From Flectonema sp. DT1601 (Eukaryota), in contig OZ025796.1 in the NCBI GenBank assembly GCA_964019425.1, positions 930,001-994,000 on the forward strand: DNA of 64,000 nt, written 5' to 3'. The position numbers and the translations under genes were made by a program. Below are positions 2,947 through 64,000 of this stretch, piece by piece (within the stretch, counting starts at the first letter, position 1; each line of letters opens with the position of its first letter). Below the pieces are notes generated by a model. It searched no databases and was not told the DNA's origin. It worked only from the letters and a program-made list of their open reading frames with translations.

Positions 2947-3537
2947 GTGTAGATGAATATAAGAAAGCATGCCTCGCGACACGCTCGTTGAGATGAAAAG
3001 TGCAGAAATTTAAATTTAAAATAAGAAAAAACCTGAATCAGCAAGAGCAACAGAAACGATAAATAAAGAACCCTACGCATCGTTACAGCAAATTATGGAG
3101 AGTAATCGCTTTGTCTGATTTGTAGAAAGGATAAGATTTCTTGTTGTCTCACTTGTCACTTTCCATCAGAAGGGAAGTAACGTAATTTAGTTAACAAAAA
3201 CGGAACAAGTGTAGATGAAAAAGTATGCCTCGCGACACATTTTTGATATGAATAAAAGTGTTTTTAATCACCGCGTTGCTATTTAAGAAAGACAGCAAGT
3301 ACCTCACAACACAAACGCAAACGAAAGGTTTACTTCACAGTGGAACAGCAACACATAATTTGAAAATAAAAAAATAATAAAAACGTGTAGATGATTAGAG
3401 GAAAGCCTCACGACACACCTTTGATGTGAAGAAAAAGAAAACAGAGGGGAAAACAGCATTAAAGACGATACTTTCTAGTAAACAGAAGTAACACAGTAAA
3501 TGATTAAGGTTTGCCTCATGGCATACCTTTGATGTGA
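2947..3537 (-). repeat. Four degenerate copies of a ~45-50 nt hairpin motif (2947-2996, 3209-3251, 3385-3429, 3496-3537)
   Basis: Minus-strand consensus TCAYMTCAA-[stem, NNGA tetraloop]-TCATYTAC; stems retained through G-U pairs and compensatory changes. Confidence 0.65.
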
Positions 3538-6500
3538 GTAGTGCATTAATTTTTAACACAGAAAGCCTCGACTCAAAAGAAGTCTCATCACTTTGCAATA
3601 TAAAAACAAGTGACACTAACTATTTGATCGGGGATCCCAATACCGCAGCAGGAGATTGGATTTAATCTCAACGCCGTAGTAGTCAGGGTTTGGTCTTTTT
3701 GATATGAAATCATTCTTTTCTTAAAAGGGAGGACAAAAATACAAAAAGGATAGGAGGCGAGAATTCCACCGACCTGGGCAACCTCGCGAATGATGACAGA
3801 ACATGAAAAGATAAATAGTTAGAAAGATTACATAAAATAATATCTATGACGACGTAAACAAAAAGAAAAGGATTGCGAAAGTACCTTAAAACCATACTAA
3901 AAAGAACTGCAGTTGGCAATAGGCAACCTATACTTCAAAATATTCTAGTTTAAGATGTTTAAGCAACTAATTGAGTTCACAGTTTTGTTCTCTTTGAGCC
4001 GACTGCGGAACTACGCCAAGCAGTTCCATTGTTTTAAATTTATCAACCATGTTTCCCTGCGCCAGCGCTTGTTTTCGAAACGTCCCAGTCACGTGAATCA
4101 GATGCGCAGAAGCCAGAGTTGTCGTCACATCGGAAGAGATGTGTCGAGGAAATACCCAATTTGGAGGACCAATGCAATTGAAATTTATTTCACGCGGTGT
4201 GTGTTTCGGGAAGTGAAGTAGTTCCCTAGCTATCTCCTGATCAGTAGTGTGATAAGGAGCAAAGCCGTCATCTCGAATAGAAGATATTGTTTGAACGTAG
4301 TCAGGAATTGGAATCTTGTCCCTCTGCTCCCAATCAGCTTTACGGATCTTTCCGATGAGGGATTTCCCTCCGTGACAAACTATTTCATAACTTCCGTTAG
4401 CGTCATTTCTATTAATGTGGTCCTTACAAACAACTAGAAGTGATTGAATCAGAATACCAAGAGTCATCTTACCTGAGTCAAAACCTGTTATGATCTCACG
4501 AGATATGTGTTCTCTCTTTCCTTTATTCTTCAAACCAAATCCTTTTATCCTCTTTCCCAGTTGCCAAATCCTCAGAGAAACACGTCCAGATAGATGTGGT
4601 CGCTGTGTCATCTCTTTCCCTTCTAACTCTTTATTCCACCAAATAAGTTCGTCAGCCCATTTCTGTGTGTACTTCATCACGGCAACGTGAGGCATCATAG
4701 CCACCACACCTGTATTAGGCCACACTTTAAAACATGGTTCAACTGTTGGTCTCTCACCACACATCATGGCTAAATTCGCATTCAATGAAAGGAAGTGTTG
4801 CCATGGATTTCGTAGAGCAATAACGTCAGTATCGAGAAGTATGAGAGCGATACCTGTGTTGGTTAGTTGGTTGTCGTAATAATAACTGAAAATAAGAATA
4901 AGAAAACAATTCAAACCTGACTGTAAGATTCGATTCATCATAATAGGTTTACAATGCATTACTGATAATGTTAGTTTGTGACCTGTCGATCTCTTTGTAG
5001 AAAGCCAAGGGCATATTTGAACTACGTCAGAACAGTCAACATTATTACTTTGACACCAACTTGACAATCTATCCCCTTGTGTTCCTATGAATATTCCAGT
5101 TGAAGCTGAGTCGTCATTCGTTGTAGTTATAGATTTTCTGACATTGTACAACCAGCTGCTCAGCATTCTCTGTGCTCTACAGTTAGCAACTGTGGCTATA
5201 ATACGTCCGTGTCTTGATGCTGATTTCACTGTTGTGATAAAGTTGTCTTTTGGTCCAATAGAATGCGTGATCCTGTTTTGAGAAACATTATTTCCGACAA
5301 CTCGAATAGACACCAAGAAATTAACATCTTCAACACCAATACTAGGATACGCAGCCCATAGTGCTAGTAGTGTCATAATTGGTATCGCGATAAACGTTAC
5401 CCTCATCAGTCTATCAACAGCCATGTTGGCAAATAGAAACTGAAGGGAGAAAGATGAATCAAAAATAAATTAAATCACAAACTACGACCACATCCATTAA
5501 GCATAACTTAGAAGACATCACCGACAGTATTTGAGAAAAAGGATGTTTTAGAAATCCAACTTTTTCTCAGTCGGATTCACTGAAGAGAGTTAAGCTCCCC
5601 AACCTTCAAAAAGTAAAGGTTTCCTTATTAAGTAGTTTACGATCTCAAGATATAATTCTTTATCGAATCCAGTGAAGACAAACTAAACGAAAAACTCGCC
5701 ATACGTCTTCACAACCGTGAGACTCTCACTGGCTAAAAAAAGACATCCGCCGCATAAACAAGGCAGACAGTAGTATTCGATATCCTTCAGTGCTCACACA
5801 ACAACGATCAACTTAAGGGGAAGTGGGATCTATGTACGAAGAGAGTGTGGATTGACGTCAGTTATGTGACGGCACTGTTATTTTATTTATAAAAACTACG
5901 AAGAAGAATACCACCATAAAGAAAATATAAATAAAAAATAGAACAAACAAGGACACGGTCGTCGACTCAGTGTAAATAACAACCCAACTTTTGAGAGTAT
6001 TAATTAATCAGTTTTTTGACAGATCTCTTGAACCTCCGCAGCTTCCGGCGATAGATCACCGTCACACTCAATTTGAATATCTTCTCCTTCAAGATTGTCA
6101 GCAGCAGAATCATCTTTTTGAGATGTCAACTCTACATCAGATTGATGATGTGGAGACGTTGGTGGTTTCACAACTAAGACCAAATTTAAAGAATCAAAAG
6201 GTCGTTCGATCCAAGCATATAGTCCAGCCACAACAAGAAGTAGTGTCGCAAACACACTAAAGAGAATCGAAGCTCCCGCATGGTAATAGATGAATCCACC
6301 TCCAAGAGTACCAATCAATGGACCAACACCCCATGACACACCATTTAGTACTCCCATTAAGGAGGTGGTCATTCCAGGGGGAGCAAATTCGTTAACAAAA
6401 AATACAGCTGCAGACCAGCTAAGACCATAGGCTATACCGTGCATCGATTCTAATAAAAAAGCCCAATAAGGATGAGTAATAATACTGTAGCCAAAAAAAC

Positions 6501-6658
6501 GCATCGATTGCGCAATGCAACCAACAAAAACCATTGATGCTGGCCCAACTCTTTTCCTTATCTCAGTTGAGTAAATGAAAACAGGAATTTCACTAGCGAT
6601 GCCAACCATCGTAGTGAACCCGATGAGTGTTTTTGAAGCTCCCAAATCATCTAAATGA
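3306..6658. repeat. Segmental duplication, copy A (copy B at 60648-64000, offset 57342)
   Basis: Sequences match from acaacacaaacgc onward; I noted only three substitutions (4468/61810, 5092/62434, 5897/63239). Confidence 0.97.
3967..5424 (-). CDS. Nucleotide-diphospho-sugar transferase-like (GT77-like, DxD) type II membrane protein; probable in-frame introns at 4854-4916 and 4434-4472
   Basis: N-terminal TM; LILLDTDVIALRNPW (DxD); NTGVV; C-terminal HLIHVT. A 63-nt GT..AG segment interrupts ILQSG|IALILLDTD. Confidence 0.65.
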   Translation of the reverse strand: MAVDRLMRVTFIAIPIMTLLALWAAYPSIGVEDVNFLVSIRVVGNNVSQNRITHSIGPKDNFITTVKSASRHGRIIATVANCRAQRMLSSWLYNVRKSITTTNDDSASTGIFIGTQGDRLSSWCQSNNVDCSDVVQICPWLSTKRSTGHKLTLSVMHCKPIMMNRILQSGLNCFLILIFSYYYDNQLTNTGIALILLDTDVIALRNPWQHFLSLNANLAMMCGERPTVEPCFKVWPNTGVVAMMPHVAVMKYTQKWADELIWWNKELEGKEMTQRPHLSGRVSLRIWQLGKRIKGFGLKNKGKREHISREIITGFDSGKMTLGILIQSLLVVCKDHINRNDANGSYEIVCHGGKSLIGKIRKADWEQRDKIPIPDYVQTISSIRDDGFAPYHTTDQEIARELLHFPKHTPREINFNCIGPPNWVFPRHISSDVTTTLASAHLIHVTGTFRKQALAQGNMVDKFKTMELLGVVPQSAQREQNCELN

Positions 6659-27613: not shown

Positions 27614-27678
<65 letters not shown>

Positions 27679-28312
27679 CGCCGAAGCGAAGATGCCGGGA
27701 AGAAACCACATGCTAGTACAGTTCTTTTACTTTTCTTTGTCTGCTGGAATTCTATCTGAGAAAACCGGTAGTCTTTAAAATTGTAAGCCAAGTACAAGTT
27801 GCCTCCTGACGGGTATATTGTGGGTAGTTCGAAAACGTTGCTCTCCAAAATATAACAAGACTCTACTCCACCCGCGTCAGGCGCATCTCTTGTCTTAGCC
27901 CTAGCATGCTACGTTGGAACATTGTCACCAGCCCGGTGGACCAAGTTGTAATTATTGCCCCTGGTTTACTCATCACTCTTCCGTGTGACGGCGGTTATTC
28001 CCTAATAACCTGTTGTATGCTTTACCTAAGTCTTTTACTTTTTTCTTCTTCGCACGCTGTCGGTTTCCACCTTCGACGCAGTCAATCTTGTTCCGCCTTG
28101 GTTGTTTTTGGAAGAGCTAAGCTAAGTGGCAAGGTTTCACTAACAGATCGACTTTTTGTCAGCATCTCAGGCTTCTTTTTGCCGAGGACGTGCGGCTTTC
28201 TTTGAGGTCTCACAGTGACACTTTTAAAAGAAATTATCTATTCCGGTGGGTATAAAGGGGGGGGGGTGGGGGAGGAGGAGGGGGAGGGGACGTGTGAGTA
28301 CACCCACAGATC

Positions 28313-55540: not shown

Positions 55541-56380
55541 TATAAAATTAAAAAAAAAGGAAACAAAAAAAAACTTTATCACTAGTCTGTTTCCTGTTTT
55601 GAAAAATATTATTTTAATTTTTTTTTTTTCTTCTTTTTTGTTGACGCTAGCGGAGAATTCTGCTTGGTGAGAAAACAAAAAAAAATCGAATAGAATATAA
55701 AAAAAAACATTTTTAGTATTTTGGGCGAACCTTCTTTGTGAAATCAACAGCCACTTGGTTAAACGAAAAAAGAAAAAAAGAAAAAAAAACCAAATTTCAT
55801 TGAACTCTGCCCCTCACATTCCTTAACACTTTCGACACCAAGAAGTTTGCAAGATCCGACTTTGGGAACTATAAACCTCCTAGCAGTGCCCTTGCTGCTT
55901 CTGGAACATGGCGGGGGAAAACTTAAGAAGAAAAAGAAAAGAAAAGGTTTACACCCCACAGCTATATACTGTCAACCGTTCATGTTGGAAAAAAAATTAT
56001 AAATCAAGAGTAATTAAACAAGGAATTCTTTGCAAATACGGTAAAAAAAGAGGGAACCGGCCTGAGAACATTTGTGACTCGGCACTTACAACCCGATTAC
56101 CGATGTGCAATGACACGTTGGCATGTGAACAAATTGCAATATTTCTTGGTGTGGGATTACGTTAACGTAATGGAATGAAATTTGCTCCTACTGCGACATT
56201 TTCAATTGGGCTGATGCCCAATACAAATAACTATTCTCGGTTCTGGAATAGAGCATCCACCTTATGTTTAGTTAGTATCATTAATTTTAGAACAGAAAAG
56301 TGAGAATAAGAAAAGTAGAGATCAATAAAAGAAAAGTATTCATTTCTGCAGTTTCCTAACATCAAAGGGTAATAGAATAT

Positions 56381-56448
56381 GTAGTTTCAGGCCTTAATCT
56401 TATACTACTTGTCCCTTTTTAGGCCTTCATCAGTAAGTTCTAAGGGAC
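56381..56448 (-). ncRNA. Hammerhead ribozyme-like motif, downstream copy; predicted cleavage after GUA between 56403 and 56402
   Basis: Minus strand: GUCCCUU AGAA CUUA CUGAUGA AGGCCU AAA AAGGGAC AA GUAGU A UAAG AUUA AGGCCU GAA ACUAC. All core nucleotides are present and stems I, II and III can pair. Confidence 0.7.
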
Positions 56449-56537
56449 TTCATTCTATGTTGAAGTTGCTATCGTTCAAAGATAAAAATCCATCGGAGCT
56501 CGCCAGGATAGGGCTAGCAATGTTTATTTGCTTTTGC

Positions 56538-57287
56538 TCAATTTGAATTTTTGACGTCTGATCGTTTCACTATTACAGTCGAGTTAATGGATGAGTCGTC
56601 ATCCAATTTGCGTTTTACTTTATCTTCGCATATCATCAAAGGTCCTATATTCGCTGGTGTCATCGTAACATCCATATCAGTCTGAGCTTTTAATGGTATC
56701 ATATGGAAACTATGCTCTGTAGTTCGGTACATCTTGTCAAAATGATCGAAAGGGAGTCTTAAATCTTTTGTGCCTTTAAGAATGTCTCGGATGATCATGG
56801 ACTCAAATGAGACTAGCGCAACAATAAAGTGAGTCATCCTTGTTTTCGCTTTATGTAGAATAAGTGCTGCGGCTGCTTCAGGATAATCGAAATCTGCTGG
56901 GTTAACGAAGTACTCGATTCTCCTGTTGAATTTAGTCATGCAAGCCATGTTAAGTACTTGTAGCGAGAACCAACCATCTGGTGATGGTTTATGCTCTGAG
57001 TTGTTCGGTTCTACTTTAAGAGATTCTTCATAAAATCGCTGTTGGTAGTTTTGCAGAAAACTGAAGTTAATTCTATCGATATATAAATGATCTGCAATGA
57101 AGTTGAGCGCTGCCCATCCGCATTCTCCACCGAGAAGACCTTCTCCTGATGTTTGATGTAGGGATGGTGGAAATCGTTTATCCAAGGAATGGCTTGTAGA
57201 GCCTGTGTGGTTAATTGTATCCTTTTCGATGCTTAATGGGACTTTGTGACTAAACTTCTCAAAAGTAAGGTTGATACGTCGACGCAT
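56538..57287 (-). CDS. Josephin/ataxin-3-like papain-fold protease (putative deubiquitinase)
   Basis: HQ..ECGWAALN, DGWFSLQVLNMA (compare ataxin-3 SGFFSIQVI), ALILH, THFIVAL, IIRD give a plausible Cys-His-Asp triad. Confidence 0.55.
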   Translation of the reverse strand: MRRRINLTFEKFSHKVPLSIEKDTINHTGSTSHSLDKRFPPSLHQTSGEGLLGGECGWAALNFIADHLYIDRINFSFLQNYQQRFYEESLKVEPNNSEHKPSPDGWFSLQVLNMACMTKFNRRIEYFVNPADFDYPEAAAALILHKAKTRMTHFIVALVSFESMIIRDILKGTKDLRLPFDHFDKMYRTTEHSFHMIPLKAQTDMDVTMTPANIGPLMICEDKVKRKLDDDSSINSTVIVKRSDVKNSN

Positions 57288-57464
57288 TGCAGCTGCTGTA
57301 TTACCATCATCAATGTGAGAGCTAATGAAGCGGAGGCATGCTGCTCCACCTTATGTTTAGTTAGAATATGAGTTTGTTATAAAAAAGTGCACTAAAATAA
57401 AATATAAAAAAGAAAAGTTATAAAAACACATTGTTCTGCTGTTCCATAATACACTGTGGAATAC

Positions 57465-57530
57465 GTAGTTTCAGGCCTTAATCTTATACTACTTGTCCCT
57501 CTTAGGCCTTCATCAGTAAGTTCTAGGGAC
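57465..57530 (-). ncRNA. Hammerhead ribozyme-like motif, upstream copy; predicted cleavage between 57487 and 57486
   Basis: Minus strand: GUCCCU AGAA CUUA CUGAUGA AGGCCU AAG AGGGAC AA GUAGU A UAAG AUUA AGGCCU GAA ACUAC. Confidence 0.7.
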
Positions 57531-59748
57531 TTCATTCCAGTTAAATAATAAATCGGATCCATCAATTGGTCTATTTCAAAAGAACTGATTATGTTTAGTT
57601 AGTTAGTTAGCAAAATACAAACTGATGACTACGAGGGGTCTGGGTAGCCCGCATCAGTAAGGACCCAATCGCGAAGATTGTAGTTTCATAGTATTGGCTG
57701 GAAGTGATCGACTTCCAGCCTCCACCTTGCCCAGAGGCTAACAGGTTGTAAACAACTAAAGAAAATAAAAAAGAAACGATCTGGGAGTGGGGGGAAGGTG
57801 AAAAAAAATAAAAAATCTTCTTTCTTTCATATACATCTTTCTTTATAATACGACCACATGTGCCATATGCCCACACTCCACGAAAGAAAATAGAAAACCC
57901 CGGAACAGTACCGAGGATCGTTCACCCCCAGTTGTCCAAAGCATTATAAGTGTACTGTGGGCTTACCGAAAAGCTTTAGAAATGTACCACAAAAGATTTA
58001 GGCAGCACATAGCCATATCACTCAGCAAGAAATGAAAACCAAAAGGATCAGGTAAGATGACAGTCAGTTTAAGGTCATAACTGCGCCGGACCTGAGTTTA
58101 AGCAACTCTCTTTGCGAGCATTACTCAAGTACAAAGAAGGCAATGGCGAATCCAAAGCCAAGGAAAGTATTTTTTCTCTTTCTTTTTTTTTTTTTTTCCA
58201 TTTTCTTTTTTATTGCGCATTGGGAAAAAGTTATGAACAAGGGAAAAATTAGTTTTAAGCATATTTATATAAAGACATAAATATATGTATTGTATCAAAG
58301 TTAATTAATTTAAATAATTAGTAATTTGTGATGCAGTGACTAAAGTGAACAAGGGGGAATTAAAAAAGAAAACGAGAGGAAAAACAACAAAGTACGTGTG
58401 AGAAGTTGACCGATTAAATTCTTTTATTTTATTTTATTTTATTTTATTTTTCTCCCCTGGAAAAAAAAAAAAAAAAAAAAAAAAGCGAGAAAAAAGAAGT
58501 CGAAACGCCTAACACTAACAATACACGTACCCAGAATCGTCAGCACCAAGTACAGTAAGGGGTGAGACAGTAGGTGTATGAATAACGAGCTAAAAACAAG
58601 CTGCAAAGGTCCCTAGCCCACAGGAGCTGGTTCCAACCGATGATGAAATGATAAAAAGATTCAAATCAAGAGCGCTGTGTTGCAGCAACGTTCTTTTTTA
58701 TTTTATTTTATTTTTATTTTTATTTTTTTTTTTTTTTTTGCCTGCATAGCTTCGCCTGAAATAGTAATGGAATAGTAATGAAATAGTAAACAAGCTCCCC
58801 AAGGGCTTTAACGTAAGTTTTTTTTTTTTTTTTTTAATAGAATTCAAGAAATCCAAGTTTTCATAAATTACACACAAGACTACATCAACAGTAATGTATT
58901 TCCGTGTTACCTAAAAGGAACCGAACATCTAAGTTAACGATCAGTAAACAATGTACTTGGTAATAATTGAGTTAAATAGGAAAAAATATAAAAAAAAATA
59001 TTTTTGATATTAAAAAAATAAACACAACTAATATATTGTATCATAAGAACCTAAAAGAATAATTTGACCACCTATGGATACCGTGACCATGCTCAACCTA
59101 ACCTTTAAGGTAACTATCAGCTTCGAGAGTAAGCGCCTCTATTCTATAGGAGAGAGGCAGGATAATAGTTTGAGCAAAAATATGTACTGGATCAAAGGGG
59201 AGAGGGAGGAGGGAAAGAACGAAATCTTCCGTATTTAATGTAAAGAAAAAGCACTTGGTGTCCTTGTGAGATGCCACATCAGTTATTGGAAATCTATAAG
59301 TAATATTTCACACAGATGAGATCTGCTTTACCAAATTCTGATCCGCGAACTACGTTGGTAAGTATAGAATTCAAAAGGACAGTTAATATATATCAGAAAT
59401 ATGATTGTCTCCGAGAATGTAACTACCCACTTTACAAAAAAAAAAAAAAAAAAAAAACATGCGAATACGAAAACAAGATCACGAAGATGGCAGGTTGTTT
59501 CCAAACCAAGGGATCTTCAATCTTTGCTCGATAGATAGATAGATAGATAAGGAAGTCCAATACATTGCGTACTGTGCATCGCTGATACAGCAAACTAGGG
59601 AGCATCGGGTTAACTCCCTAGAGCTACGAGGCAACAGCAACGTAATTAGACCCAATCTTATTAGGATTGTTTTATTATAGCTTCGGCTGACGGGGCATAA
59701 TGAACACAGTATGCCTATTGTCAGCTTTCCACCTTGTCCGATTGTTGT

Positions 59749-59906
59749 CGGGTATATTGTGGGTAGTTCGAAAACGTTGCGCTCCAAAATATAACAAGAC
59801 TCTACTCCACCCGCGTCAGGCGCATCTCTTGTCTTAGCCCTAGCATGCTACGTTGGAACATTGTCACCAGCCCGGTGGACCAAGTTGTAATTATTGCCCC
59901 TGGTTT
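59749..59906 (-). mobile_element. Internal 3'-UTR fragment of the CRE-like element
   Basis: Matches 27810-27967 with one substitution; lacks the terminal 131 nt and the tail. Confidence 0.9.
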
Positions 59907-59976
59907 TTTTTAACTCAAGGCGTGTTATAGTATTAGGTGAGAGATAATGGAAAGGAAGAGAAAAGAGAGAGGGTTG

Positions 59977-59977
<1 letters not shown>

Positions 59978-60017
<40 letters not shown>

Positions 60018-60326
60018 CGCCGAAGCGAAGATGCCGGGAAGAAACCACATGCTAGTACAGTTCTTTTACTTTTCTTTGTCTGCTGGAATTCTATCTGAGA
60101 AAACCGGTAGTCTTTAAAATTGTAAGCCAAGTACAAGTTGCCTCCTGACGGGTATATTGTGGGTAGTTCGAAAACGTTGCGCTCCAAAATATAACAAGAC
60201 TCTACTCCACCCGCGTCAGGCGCATCTCTTGTCTTAGCCCTAGCATGCTACGTTGGAACATTGTCACCAGCCCGGTGGACCAAGTTGTAATTATTGCCCC
60301 TGGTTTACTCATCACTCTTCCGTGTG
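59978..60326 (-). mobile_element. 5'-truncated copy of the CRE-like element with a 40-nt poly(A) tail
   Basis: 60018-60326 matches 27679-27987 with one substitution; T40 at 59978-60017 and T8 at 60327-60334. Confidence 0.93.
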
Positions 60327-61308
60327 TTTTTTTTGTTCCATAACGGACAATGAAAAAGAGTAATATTTATCAAAAAGGTGTCATCTACTCAGATAACATA
60401 GAGGAAGAAGCACGGGTCATGACGAACAGGCTGCGAAACACAAGTAAAAACGTCTACGCAGTCCCAAACACAGATACACATTTCTGATTTACTATTGAAA
60501 ATTACTCTAGCAGGAAAGTGCTTGCAATTAATCAACTAAACCACTTAGGTAACGTGTGTCATGCTGCTGGCTGAAATGTGCAAACAAAAAATCGGGGGGT
60601 GGAAAAGAAGGATAAAAAAAAAAAAAGAGAGGAAGAACAGTAATTATACAACACAAACGCAAACGAAAGGTTTACTTCACAGTGGAACAGCAACACATAA
60701 TTTGAAAATAAAAAAATAATAAAAACGTGTAGATGATTAGAGGAAAGCCTCACGACACACCTTTGATGTGAAGAAAAAGAAAACAGAGGGGAAAACAGCA
60801 TTAAAGACGATACTTTCTAGTAAACAGAAGTAACACAGTAAATGATTAAGGTTTGCCTCATGGCATACCTTTGATGTGAGTAGTGCATTAATTTTTAACA
60901 CAGAAAGCCTCGACTCAAAAGAAGTCTCATCACTTTGCAATATAAAAACAAGTGACACTAACTATTTGATCGGGGATCCCAATACCGCAGCAGGAGATTG
61001 GATTTAATCTCAACGCCGTAGTAGTCAGGGTTTGGTCTTTTTGATATGAAATCATTCTTTTCTTAAAAGGGAGGACAAAAATACAAAAAGGATAGGAGGC
61101 GAGAATTCCACCGACCTGGGCAACCTCGCGAATGATGACAGAACATGAAAAGATAAATAGTTAGAAAGATTACATAAAATAATATCTATGACGACGTAAA
61201 CAAAAAGAAAAGGATTGCGAAAGTACCTTAAAACCATACTAAAAAGAACTGCAGTTGGCAATAGGCAACCTATACTTCAAAATATTCTAGTTTAAGATGT
61301 TTAAGCAA

Positions 61309-62766
61309 CTAATTGAGTTCACAGTTTTGTTCTCTTTGAGCCGACTGCGGAACTACGCCAAGCAGTTCCATTGTTTTAAATTTATCAACCATGTTTCCCT
61401 GCGCCAGCGCTTGTTTTCGAAACGTCCCAGTCACGTGAATCAGATGCGCAGAAGCCAGAGTTGTCGTCACATCGGAAGAGATGTGTCGAGGAAATACCCA
61501 ATTTGGAGGACCAATGCAATTGAAATTTATTTCACGCGGTGTGTGTTTCGGGAAGTGAAGTAGTTCCCTAGCTATCTCCTGATCAGTAGTGTGATAAGGA
61601 GCAAAGCCGTCATCTCGAATAGAAGATATTGTTTGAACGTAGTCAGGAATTGGAATCTTGTCCCTCTGCTCCCAATCAGCTTTACGGATCTTTCCGATGA
61701 GGGATTTCCCTCCGTGACAAACTATTTCATAACTTCCGTTAGCGTCATTTCTATTAATGTGGTCCTTACAAACAACTAGAAGTGATTGAATCAGAATACC
61801 AAGAGTCATATTACCTGAGTCAAAACCTGTTATGATCTCACGAGATATGTGTTCTCTCTTTCCTTTATTCTTCAAACCAAATCCTTTTATCCTCTTTCCC
61901 AGTTGCCAAATCCTCAGAGAAACACGTCCAGATAGATGTGGTCGCTGTGTCATCTCTTTCCCTTCTAACTCTTTATTCCACCAAATAAGTTCGTCAGCCC
62001 ATTTCTGTGTGTACTTCATCACGGCAACGTGAGGCATCATAGCCACCACACCTGTATTAGGCCACACTTTAAAACATGGTTCAACTGTTGGTCTCTCACC
62101 ACACATCATGGCTAAATTCGCATTCAATGAAAGGAAGTGTTGCCATGGATTTCGTAGAGCAATAACGTCAGTATCGAGAAGTATGAGAGCGATACCTGTG
62201 TTGGTTAGTTGGTTGTCGTAATAATAACTGAAAATAAGAATAAGAAAACAATTCAAACCTGACTGTAAGATTCGATTCATCATAATAGGTTTACAATGCA
62301 TTACTGATAATGTTAGTTTGTGACCTGTCGATCTCTTTGTAGAAAGCCAAGGGCATATTTGAACTACGTCAGAACAGTCAACATTATTACTTTGACACCA
62401 ACTTGACAATCTATCCCCTTGTGTTCCTATGAAGATTCCAGTTGAAGCTGAGTCGTCATTCGTTGTAGTTATAGATTTTCTGACATTGTACAACCAGCTG
62501 CTCAGCATTCTCTGTGCTCTACAGTTAGCAACTGTGGCTATAATACGTCCGTGTCTTGATGCTGATTTCACTGTTGTGATAAAGTTGTCTTTTGGTCCAA
62601 TAGAATGCGTGATCCTGTTTTGAGAAACATTATTTCCGACAACTCGAATAGACACCAAGAAATTAACATCTTCAACACCAATACTAGGATACGCAGCCCA
62701 TAGTGCTAGTAGTGTCATAATTGGTATCGCGATAAACGTTACCCTCATCAGTCTATCAACAGCCAT
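61309..62766 (-). CDS. Duplicate DxD glycosyltransferase-like gene
   Basis: Identical to 3967-5424 except K->N (61810) and one synonymous change. Confidence 0.65.
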   Translation of the reverse strand: MAVDRLMRVTFIAIPIMTLLALWAAYPSIGVEDVNFLVSIRVVGNNVSQNRITHSIGPKDNFITTVKSASRHGRIIATVANCRAQRMLSSWLYNVRKSITTTNDDSASTGIFIGTQGDRLSSWCQSNNVDCSDVVQICPWLSTKRSTGHKLTLSVMHCKPIMMNRILQSGLNCFLILIFSYYYDNQLTNTGIALILLDTDVIALRNPWQHFLSLNANLAMMCGERPTVEPCFKVWPNTGVVAMMPHVAVMKYTQKWADELIWWNKELEGKEMTQRPHLSGRVSLRIWQLGKRIKGFGLKNKGKREHISREIITGFDSGNMTLGILIQSLLVVCKDHINRNDANGSYEIVCHGGKSLIGKIRKADWEQRDKIPIPDYVQTISSIRDDGFAPYHTTDQEIARELLHFPKHTPREINFNCIGPPNWVFPRHISSDVTTTLASAHLIHVTGTFRKQALAQGNMVDKFKTMELLGVVPQSAQREQNCELN

Positions 62767-63345
62767 GTTGGCAAATAGAAACTGAAGGGAGAAAGATGAA
62801 TCAAAAATAAATTAAATCACAAACTACGACCACATCCATTAAGCATAACTTAGAAGACATCACCGACAGTATTTGAGAAAAAGGATGTTTTAGAAATCCA
62901 ACTTTTTCTCAGTCGGATTCACTGAAGAGAGTTAAGCTCCCCAACCTTCAAAAAGTAAAGGTTTCCTTATTAAGTAGTTTACGATCTCAAGATATAATTC
63001 TTTATCGAATCCAGTGAAGACAAACTAAACGAAAAACTCGCCATACGTCTTCACAACCGTGAGACTCTCACTGGCTAAAAAAAGACATCCGCCGCATAAA
63101 CAAGGCAGACAGTAGTATTCGATATCCTTCAGTGCTCACACAACAACGATCAACTTAAGGGGAAGTGGGATCTATGTACGAAGAGAGTGTGGATTGACGT
63201 CAGTTATGTGACGGCACTGTTATTTTATTTATAAAAACCACGAAGAAGAATACCACCATAAAGAAAATATAAATAAAAAATAGAACAAACAAGGACACGG
63301 TCGTCGACTCAGTGTAAATAACAACCCAACTTTTGAGAGTATTAA

Positions 63346-64000
63346 TTAATCAGTTTTTTGACAGATCTCTTGAACCTCCGCAGCTTCCGGCGATAGATCA
63401 CCGTCACACTCAATTTGAATATCTTCTCCTTCAAGATTGTCAGCAGCAGAATCATCTTTTTGAGATGTCAACTCTACATCAGATTGATGATGTGGAGACG
63501 TTGGTGGTTTCACAACTAAGACCAAATTTAAAGAATCAAAAGGTCGTTCGATCCAAGCATATAGTCCAGCCACAACAAGAAGTAGTGTCGCAAACACACT
63601 AAAGAGAATCGAAGCTCCCGCATGGTAATAGATGAATCCACCTCCAAGAGTACCAATCAATGGACCAACACCCCATGACACACCATTTAGTACTCCCATT
63701 AAGGAGGTGGTCATTCCAGGGGGAGCAAATTCGTTAACAAAAAATACAGCTGCAGACCAGCTAAGACCATAGGCTATACCGTGCATCGATTCTAATAAAA
63801 AAGCCCAATAAGGATGAGTAATAATACTGTAGCCAAAAAAACGCATCGATTGCGCAATGCAACCAACAAAAACCATTGATGCTGGCCCAACTCTTTTCCT
63901 TATCTCAGTTGAGTAAATGAAAACAGGAATTTCACTAGCGATGCCAACCATCGTAGTGAACCCGATGAGTGTTTTTGAAGCTCCCAAATCATCTAAATGA
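63346..64000 (-). CDS. MFS transporter (MFSD6-like), 3' part; 5' part beyond the window
   Basis: Identical to 6004-6658; frame is open to the window edge. Confidence 0.75.
   Translation of the reverse strand, partial: HLDDLGASKTLIGFTTMVGIASEIPVFIYSTEIRKRVGPASMVFVGCIAQSMRFFGYSIITHPYWAFLLESMHGIAYGLSWSAAVFFVNEFAPPGMTTSLMGVLNGVSWGVGPLIGTLGGGFIYYHAGASILFSVFATLLLVVAGLYAWIERPFDSLNLVLVVKPPTSPHHQSDVELTSQKDDSAADNLEGEDIQIECDGDLSPEAAEVQEICQKTD

Follow-up and report, generated by a model that had tools for sequence, protein, structure and literature searches.

Chlamys-type Penelope-like element 3' ends with predicted type-CSG hammerheads in a likely diplonemid genome

In the 64,000-nucleotide stretch of DNA analysed here (the window), a locus bounded by two direct repeats is best explained as a copy of a Chlamys-type Penelope-like element (PLE) that is truncated at its 5' end and likely follows two further 3'-end fragments within a single insertion, with each repeat representing an element 3' end that carries a predicted type-CSG hammerhead. 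We assign this reading a probability of about 0.8. A preliminary description of the same DNA had proposed a retrozyme-like cassette with a captured Josephin-like cargo gene and had offered, as a fallback, the remnant of a larger multi-ORF element. It is the fallback that is borne out, the reading frame between the repeats being the tail of a reverse transcriptase (RT) polyprotein.

The tail of a Penelope-like polyprotein

The minus-strand frame at 56538-57345, which forms the coding part of the truncated copy, corresponds to residues 1083-1350 of the 1350-aa protein P0032, with 265 of 268 residues identical (99%). It is free of stops and begins exactly where the upstream repeat ends (junction 57344/57345), and the start of the 249-aa ORF is a Met internal to it (57287). 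Judged by its sequence, the ORF is the last part of a Chlamys-type PLE gene, of which 268 codons remain, and not cargo.

P0032 and its relatives P0026 and P0036 (1279-1367 aa) contain GIY-YIG, CxC, DKG and RT motifs, followed by a Josephin-like tail. In P0032, the GIY-YIG motif (aa 237-256) lies N-terminal to the RT (840-962), the CxC is represented by CNC at 560, and DKG is found at 679; CxC and DK can also be read in relatives. The Pfam GIY-YIG model matches P0032 (E 0.15) and P0036 (0.007) weakly and relatives P0060 and P0063 at or above the cut-off. Residues 226-345 of P0032 include a single Cys and thus lack the CCHH and CX2-5CxxC zinc fingers of Naiads. In the P0032 RT, 74 aa separate motifs A and B, the spacing considered here for the insertion-in-fingers domain of Chlamys elements. 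Related gene calls form clusters of 59 and 24 members, and the 15 listed for each range from 99 to 1367 aa. In an RT tree built without a published Chlamys sequence and with the short loci L017, L021-L024, L027 and L028 excluded, the family groups with a protein of Flectonema neradi (100/99) within a clade that includes proteins of Diplonema and Rhynchopus. The host is likely a diplonemid (marine protist), and some diplonemid copies are annotated as host ubiquitin hydrolases.

The family shares with Chlamys elements, and especially with Chlamys-1_cBra, an N-terminal GIY-YIG domain without CCHH, the CxC and DK(G) motifs, the RT, and a C-terminal Josephin-like extension, for which Chlamys-1_cBra of Chara braunii provides a precedent (Craig et al. 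2021, PMC8557442); the likeness of the RT to the Chlamys-1_cBra motifs was read by eye. There are also differences. The host here is likely a diplonemid, whereas the main text of PMC8557442 mentions neither Euglenozoa nor diplonemids, and the window element bears a permuted hammerhead at its 3' end and has relatives among which Josephin, USP, and Ulp1 protease tails are interchanged.

The tail itself contains a Josephin-like papain-fold domain (56688-57200, minus strand), as the preliminary description had proposed, and a Josephin-like fold with a Cys-His-Asp triad is supported by profile comparison and structure modeling. Aligned by hhalign, the profile of the window family matches that of the Josephin domains of sister elements at 97%. 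The candidate catalytic residues of the ORF, Cys56 (codon at 57122), His153 (56831), and Asp168 (56786), fall on conserved columns of those domains and follow the assignment of the Josephin catalytic triad. The alignment-based structure model reached a pLDDT of 88 (a single-sequence model gave 32). The first-ranked Foldseek match was 3o65 (E 4e-5), with seven of the nine matches at E up to 0.001 being of Josephin type, and Josephins also occupied ranks 1-5 of VIA-align (Z 13.4-9.7, the next family following at 9.3). The ORF gave no match to Pfam PF02099, the cut-off of which is passed by five of seven sister-element domains; a profile search of PDB sequences returned only a weak ataxin-3-like match (E about 0.2), and the Atlas returned C39 and other papain-like clusters at 0.89-0.92 and no Josephin. 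Set against the Josephin deubiquitinases (JOSD2, 6pgv; ataxin-3-like, 3o65; bacterial JOS proteins), the domain has the same Cys-His-Asp order and a best structural match with Z 13.4 and rmsd 2.4 over 126 aligned residues, but it is only 12-14% identical, lacks the Pfam Josephin match, and is fused to an RT.

Predicted hammerheads of type CSG

The direct repeats (56256-56455 and 57345-57537) are 77% identical over 207 columns (E 2e-29). The preliminary description of two hammerhead-bearing repeats, with ribozyme blocks conserved and their surroundings diverged, is confirmed: identity is 77 of 81 columns in the block (95%), 83 of 126 in the tail (66%), and 28 of 62 on the upstream side. A descriptor covering all six hammerhead block orders, applied to both strands of the whole window, gave two matches, which are the two repeats, both of type CSG and both on the minus strand. 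In forty shuffled windows, seven loose matches were obtained (one of them CSG), none with equally long stems. Rfam returned nothing in the window at gathering score, and none of its nine matches at E up to 10 was a hammerhead. The sequence of both copies includes CUGANGA, GAAA, and UH in C-S-G order, all hammerhead core nucleotides, stems I, II, and III of 4, 6, and 5 pairs, and a fourth helix, P4, of six pairs in the upstream copy and seven in the downstream one. On this pattern, the motif is a predicted, non-circularly permuted type-CSG hammerhead. The earlier identification as a hammerhead therefore holds for core and stems in both repeats but not for the ordinary canonical type; the permutation had gone unremarked.

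All ribozyme features lie on the minus strand. Ribozyme A (57465-57530), recognized by descriptor, is composed of P4a (57530-57525) and P4b (57500-57495), stem I (57520-57517) with I' (57486-57483), CUGAUGA (57516-57510), stem II (57509-57504) with II' (57478-57473), stem III (57492-57488) with III' (57469-57465), and GAA (57472-57470), with a predicted cut after A57487 (GUA). Ribozyme B (56381-56448), recognized in the same way, has CUGAUGA at 56433-56427, GAAA from 56388, and a predicted cut after A56403. The four differences between the two fall outside stems I-III, P4 being one pair longer in B; with stems I-III identical, the CSG form has no covariation of its own. The best nested, pseudoknot-free fold includes P4 and stem III but neither stem I nor stem II (z -1.4 and -2.5). 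A search of viral contigs with the exact ribozyme pattern and an RT alignment gave no match.

Type CSG has been described from two unique soil-metagenome DNA sequences, for which the passages cited here name no host or element and neither of which is from the genome of a known organism (Eckert et al. 2023, PMC10085705). The window motif shares with them the C-S-G order, all core nucleotides, the fourth helix joining pre-stem I to post-stem II sequence, and the short I'-II' link. It differs in its setting, a eukaryotic retroelement, in the A-U pair at 10.1-11.1, and in an 11-nt link between stems II and III. The published CSG descriptor would miss it, because G10.1-C11.1 and a link of at most 10 nt are required (PMC10085705); G10.1-C11.1 is a setting of that descriptor and not a definition of the block order.

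A related arrangement was found among 28 related retroelement loci, nine of which have the same four helices on the sense strand, downstream of the ORF. The thresholds of the four-helix descriptor were chosen after inspection of the loci, and it gave two matches in 30 shuffled sets. In the nine, the knot is opened between A9 and G10.1, inside the catalytic block, a split form that we did not find described in the literature; PMC10085705 assumes, in the passages cited, that block C is uninterruptible. Across six aligned motifs, 94.9% of 137 cells are paired, and six pairs have changed on both sides, a sign of covariation. The same four-helix ring is seen in type SGC (HRIMA-1, PMC10085705), and the related loci have the order S, G, CUGANGA; the difference is that all nine have the 5' strand of stem II placed before block S and not beside CUGANGA, where zero to two pairs are possible. 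The metagenome loci of the window family's own RT clade (L005, L013, L014, and L016) gave no four-helix match, and no hammerhead core was seen by eye at the 3' end of Chlamys-1_cBra. Rfam gave no match at gathering score in 20 of the 28 loci, and the six-order descriptor gave none on the sense strand of the 28, its four antisense matches being discarded as lying inside coding sequence. An intron at the split ribozymes is not claimed, since donor- and acceptor-like words occur together in only two of eight loci.

It is unlikely, in our estimate, that the PLE reading is right and the motif nevertheless does not, or never did, work as a ribozyme, serving the RT as a structured 3' signal, or that it is a slow ribozyme in need of a partner copy or an element protein. 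Stem II opens with the A-U pair at 10.1-11.1 in both copies, and such a pair may slow hammerhead cleavage. Stem I has only four contiguous pairs, and the self-complementary stem II could swap between copies. A contig from an RNA run of a relative (X5 record 25), which may be DNA, crosses site 56403 uncut. Moreover, poor cleavage, or cleavage as dimers, is common among PLE hammerheads (PMC4209133), which may also need the element's protein (PMC11167929). Against this stands the retention of CUGANGA, GAAA, the A15.1-U16.1 pair, and a non-G at 17 in both window copies and in eight distinct related motifs, one of which has an extra U in the core. This is the pattern expected of catalysis.

Probable stacking of 3' ends and the 1084-nt spacing

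The three abutting retroelement 3'-end fragments are placed at 56257-58115 (minus strand), with boundaries inferred from contig joints, the ORF junction, and a candidate target-site duplication. Contig joints or loose ends fall at 57589/57590 and 57598, and cover extends up to 58094, with none in the bin 58127-58227. The candidate duplication is the 6-bp ATGCTC (upstream copy 58116-58121, downstream copy 56251-56256, minus strand); 0.5% of random 33-start regions show one, in a test that is post hoc.

The first fragment, unit X (57590-58115, minus strand), is non-coding repeated sequence found in diverged contigs of runs X2, X3, and X5. It ends in CTAAC-TAAACATAA, a word common to both repeats, and in runs X2 and X5 it is joined to other pieces of the element's 3' end. 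It gave no tblastn match to 16 proteins and no hammerhead match. A structured motif lies at about 57615-57720; no hammerhead (in any order), HDV-like, or twister fold fits it by eye or descriptor, and its GAAA is altered in the X2 and X5 contigs.

The second fragment (57346-57589, minus strand) contains ribozyme A and its tail, and it appears to be the 3' end, or pseudo-LTR, of a likely sister family, given the 66% tail identity. Contigs of X2 and X3 diverge from the window sequence at 57589/57590, which suggests a separate fragment for the upstream repeat. By sequence and pattern match, its tail (57346-57464) contains a U-rich tract, a branch-point-like CUAAC, an AG at 57351-57350, and the element end GTGG; that of the downstream repeat (56257-56380) contains a U-rich tract, UACUAAC, an AG at 56262-56261, and the same GTGG, both on the minus strand. 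The upstream tail can be read as a putative splice acceptor. Chlamys elements likewise show 5' truncation, partial tandems forming pseudo-LTRs (compare junction 57344/57345 and the stacked 3' ends here), and no canonical hammerhead (PMC8557442).

The predicted cuts, after 57487 and 56403 on the minus strand, would yield an RNA of 1084 nt, and the 249-aa ORF (56538-57287, minus strand) sits wholly between them, exactly as had been reported. The ORF does share the strand of the ribozymes, but this agreement is poor evidence, because the minus strand carries 19 of the 21 window ORFs of at least 200 codons. The spacing is probably accidental, the repeats being, in all likelihood, the 3' ends of two related families in one composite insertion.

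That the locus is instead a non-autonomous unit of retrozyme type, with its two ribozymes setting free a circularizing RNA that encodes a stand-alone Josephin-like protease, is quite unlikely. In favor of this reading, both predicted ribozymes are intact and a complete one would re-form where the RNA ends are ligated; the stop-free frame encodes the entire protease domain. Animal retrozymes have been proposed to derive from PLE pseudo-LTRs (bioRxiv 10.64898/2026.07.22.740005), and the exact 249-aa product occurs in the protein collection on one contig of 37,943 bases; this is less than the length of the window, and the product may thus also be present in a second record. Plant LTR (PMC4918200) and animal non-LTR retrozymes (PMC7229834) likewise have hammerhead direct repeats around about 1 kb. 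However, retrozymes are non-autonomous, the plant type being non-coding (PMC4918200) and the animal type having type I hammerheads and units of 170-400 nt (PMC7229834), whereas the interior here, which begins at the repeat edge, consists of coding sequence from the tail of an autonomous RT gene, and the hammerheads belong to type CSG. The repeats, 77% identical overall, diverge by 34% beyond the ribozyme and apparently belong to separate fragments, and the ATG of the ORF is the sixth in the 1084-nt piece, with five preceding it. Family members vary widely in length, and among the 15 listed per cluster nothing suggests that a 249-aa form has been amplified. No circular back-joint was listed among the contigs of four runs, of which one was an RNA run of a relative; the test is weak, as it covers contigs only. 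The captured-cargo cassette of the preliminary description is thus not supported.

An ordinary minimal type I hammerhead acting as a dimer, as in animal PLEs, with the CSG pairing arising by chance, is very improbable: CUGAUGA, a closable stem II, and GAAAC do follow in canonical order, and ribozyme A could form a 2-bp stem III with GUA, but stem I would then reach at most one pair in A and two in B, with the pairing of stem III disrupted in B, and the canonical fold was rejected. In the CSG register, each copy forms P4 as well as stems of 4, 6, and 5 pairs.

A possible life cycle and its implications

A full-length PLE of this family would be transcribed in tandem or within a same-strand transcript of the host, and the knotted hammerhead may then cut the RNA close to the element 3' end; cleavage has been demonstrated for each of the two published CSG ribozymes (PMC10085705). 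Downstream of the cut, the U-rich tract, branch point, and AG could provide the following copy with an acceptor for splicing or for a spliced leader. The RT would copy element RNA from the fixed 3' end (GTGG), often stopping early and restarting on another template, and such stops and restarts would produce a stack of 3' ends. In the anole Penelope element, hammerhead cleavage is dispensable for insertion in vitro (PMC11167929). The Josephin-like tail likely strips ubiquitin or a ubiquitin-like tag, by which the element protein would be protected. If the locus is transcribed and both ribozymes cut, the 1084-nt RNA would be a by-product and not a selected unit.

A broader proposal is advanced tentatively, at slightly less than even odds. 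An active hammerhead may be widespread among PLEs with an N-terminal endonuclease (Chlamys and Naiad), based on a knotted ring of four helices whose opening point varies: CSG in the diplonemid family and, in other lineages, the A9/G10.1 split, for which published classifications leave no room. In diplonemids, the ribozyme, branch point, and AG would together free the element from a polycistronic host transcript and gain it a spliced leader.

Chlamys and Naiad elements are reported, in the passages cited, to be without canonical hammerheads (Craig et al. 2021, PMC8557442). The CSG motif and the split form of the nine related loci together offer a testable reason for this: they may have seemed hammerhead-free because the search descriptors were blind to such wiring. 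The predicted ribozyme motifs of the window, each under 70 nt, give the type-CSG hammerhead a host genome and a biological setting, and Chlamys-type elements are extended to what is likely a diplonemid.

The reading frame and its parent element

The 249-amino acid ORF was described in the preliminary description as the protease-coding cargo of a mobile or circular-RNA-forming unit, and this description is not supported by comparison with related proteins. Between 57344 and 56541 the frame corresponds to residues 1083-1350 of the related retroelement protein P0032 (265 of 268 identical) and, judged by its sequence, is not a stand-alone gene but the tail of a 1350-amino acid GIY-YIG/RT polyprotein, as the alternative suggestion of a remnant of a larger element had anticipated. 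P0032 and its relatives P0026 and P0036 are 1279-1367 amino acids in length. Each combines a Penelope-type RT with a GIY-YIG motif at the N terminus and with CxC and DKG motifs, features described as hallmarks of Chlamys elements (PMC8557442). The two protein clusters of the family have 59 and 24 members, lengths varying widely among those listed, and some short members may represent broken frames rather than truncations. The RT tree, which comprises 37 rows, excludes seven short loci, and contains no published Chlamys row, places the window family as sister to a Flectonema protein (support 100/99). Given this placement and the diplonemid genera of the named relatives (Flectonema neradi, Diplonema papillatum, Rhynchopus, and Lacrimia), the host is likely to be a diplonemid. 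The element is an additional, new member of a known clade; no report of a Penelope-like element (PLE) in a diplonemid was found in a search with thin coverage of subscription journals.

The proposed Josephin-like character of the protease is upheld by a fold search and a profile check, and Pfam made no Josephin call on the window ORF. The profile of the window domain matched the Josephin domains carried by seven sister elements, of which five pass the Pfam cut-off, with 97% probability (controls: USP 4%, reversed 0.1%). The predicted model has a pLDDT of 88 over residues 30-200, and its closest structural matches are Josephins (Foldseek E 4e-5; VIA-align to JOSD2, Z 13.4, rmsd 2.4, 126 aligned, the next family reaching Z 9.3). 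C56, H153, and D168 are present at the expected positions. The modeled tail has a Josephin-like fold and would be expected to have deubiquitinase activity.

Josephin tails have been described for Chlamys-1_cBra and, as cited in the same paper, for Dualen elements (PMC8557442). Other protease tails occur in relatives: USP in P0061-P0063 and a Ulp1 (SUMO protease-type) domain in the metagenome locus L009 (119-4576). In the P0063 cluster of D. papillatum, eight of the ten proteins listed bear the name “putative ubiquitin carboxyl-terminal hydrolase 16,” yet the cluster is represented by a Penelope-like polyprotein that has GIY-YIG and RT parts and ends in a USP tail. The same Josephin-like subfamily is found at the N terminus of P0016, an APE-RT LINE-type protein of F. 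neradi, which suggests exchange of the domain between retroelement classes. A third PLE family (P0070/P0107; 35 members, up to 1943 amino acids among those listed) combines the same domain with a long, repeat-rich tail. Elsewhere in the window (27616 to about 38000, minus strand) is a GC-rich non-LTR retrotransposon with a poly(A) tail, the 3208-amino acid ORF of which contains OTU, RT, USP, and RNase H N-terminal domains and hence two deubiquitinase domains in one element. Two short copies of its 3′ region, one with a poly(A) tail, lie at 59746-60326 and are 99% identical to 27639-27987.

A predicted type-CSG hammerhead in the repeats

The frame lies on the minus strand between two direct repeats, the downstream copy B (56256-56455) and the upstream copy A (57345-57537), which are 77% identical over 207 columns when compared within the window. 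As had been observed, a near-identical ribozyme block (77/81 columns) sits beside drifted neighbors (tail 83/126, upstream side 28/62). A further repeat of at least 3353 bp (3306-6658 and 60648-64000; 99.9% identity, 57,342 bp apart), containing two host genes, either arose by recent duplication or is an artefact of assembly. Nineteen of the 21 long ORFs in the window are on the minus strand, the other two being antisense within larger minus-strand ORFs, a layout that suggests polycistronic transcription.

Hammerheads had been proposed for both repeats; a ribozyme layout is indeed present in each, but it is not canonical. An Rfam search of the window found no hammerhead, and a minimal type I register was rejected (stem I of two pairs at most, register broken in copy B). 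The minus-strand order is P4a, stem I, CUGAUGA, stem II, P4b, stem III, GUA, stem I′, stem II′, GAA, stem III′, which makes the predicted motif type CSG, a non-circular permutation, in the naming of PMC10085705. A descriptor covering all six hammerhead orders matched the window twice, each time as CSG with stems of 4, 6, and 5 pairs; 40 shuffled windows gave seven loose matches, none of comparable strength. The CSG set described in PMC10085705 consists of two unique sequences, found in DNA of soil metagenomes, and each of them self-cleaved (0.004 and 0.026 per minute). The window motif would escape the published descriptor (PMC10085705), which requires G10.1-C11.1 and a link of no more than 10 nt, because it has A-U at 10.1-11.1 and an 11-nt link. 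P4 has six and seven pairs in the two copies, and cleavage is predicted after 57487 and after 56403; the ORF lies between predicted cuts 1084 nt apart, as originally proposed. The A-U pair at 10.1-11.1 calls for caution over the activity of the predicted ribozyme.

Split hammerhead motifs in related loci

Metagenomes scanned with the RT alignment yielded 28 related loci. A four-block descriptor, composed after their 3′ ends had been viewed, matched nine (eight distinct), all on the sense strand downstream of the ORF, compared with two matches in 30 shuffled sets. These hammerhead motifs, which show covariation, are split between A9 and G10.1 (L001:3203-3281, L007:3316-3433, L008:1983-2079, L009:4639-4835, L010:2028-2149, L011:4823-5019, L012:2309-2402, L015:2555-2619, and L022:1799-1901); those of L009 and L011 also carry a long insert, and their core has an additional U. 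The split motifs have the same four helices and short stem I′-II′ link as the window motif, but their stem II 5′ strand precedes the cleavage block and CUGANGA stands last. CSG, SGC, and the split form correspond to a single ring opened at three different points. Across ten motifs, 128 of 130 core-anchored cells are paired, partly by construction. An alignment of six motifs shows pairing in 94.9% of 137 cells (slid controls, 39-57%) and six pairs that have changed on both sides; its covariation score was reached by none of 500 shuffles, a figure that, the sequences being related, is not a probability. In the split loci, the sequence beside the core allows only zero to two pairs.

The nine split loci fall outside the RT clade of the window family, the descriptor matched none of the four metagenome loci within it, and inspection of the Chlamys-1_cBra 3′ end revealed no hammerhead core, all of which counts against generality. 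Some other loci without a match may end before the 3′ UTR. Craig et al. describe Naiads and most Chlamys elements as being without canonical hammerheads and report eight cases with two half-cores 35-50 nt apart, compared with a gap of 37 nt in the window motif (PMC8557442). No publication was found that assigns a hammerhead of the CSG or split form to a retroelement, again with thin subscription-journal coverage, and the predicted ribozyme is a new form of a known ribozyme type.

Origin of the locus and proposed mechanism

The preliminary description envisaged a retrozyme-like unit giving a 1084-nt protein-coding RNA. With two predicted cuts at this spacing, transcription of the locus could yield such an RNA, but the model is unlikely: the frame belongs to an RT polyprotein, five ATGs precede the ORF start, no circular junction was listed among contigs of the four examined runs, and a contig from an RNA run of a relative spans the downstream predicted site.

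We read the locus instead as a single insertion in which three 3′ ends are stacked: unit X (57590-58115, minus strand), an end that probably comes from a sister family, and a truncated copy of 1.09 kb. The coding piece starts one base past the GTGG end of the upstream repeat, and the downstream repeat also ends in GTGG. Contigs of runs X2 and X3 track the upstream repeat to 57589/57590 before diverging from the window, and in contigs of X2 and X5 the 57590-58100 unit is linked to different parts of the element's 3′ end. A 6-bp word occurs on both sides of 58115-56257 (chance frequency 0.5%, in a post hoc test). Partial tandems forming pseudo-LTRs are typical of PLEs (PMC8557442, PMC11167929). 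Unit X contains a structured motif (57615-57720; three helices together with a 10-bp hairpin and a pseudoknot-like pairing of 7 bp) that has three short words in common with the ribozyme (CUUA-CUGAUG, GUAGU, and GAAACUAC blocks). It was rejected as a hammerhead, fitting none of the orders; in an X5 contig it precedes the tail, in the position of the window's ribozyme B.

If the stacked-ends reading holds, the 1084-nt spacing was set by where the RT stopped. The identity of the element, its truncation point, the tail fold, the ribozyme layout, and covariation in relatives are established, and a mechanism may be proposed in which ribozyme cleavage would release the element RNA, the AG behind the ribozyme would serve as acceptor, and the RT would restart on other templates.
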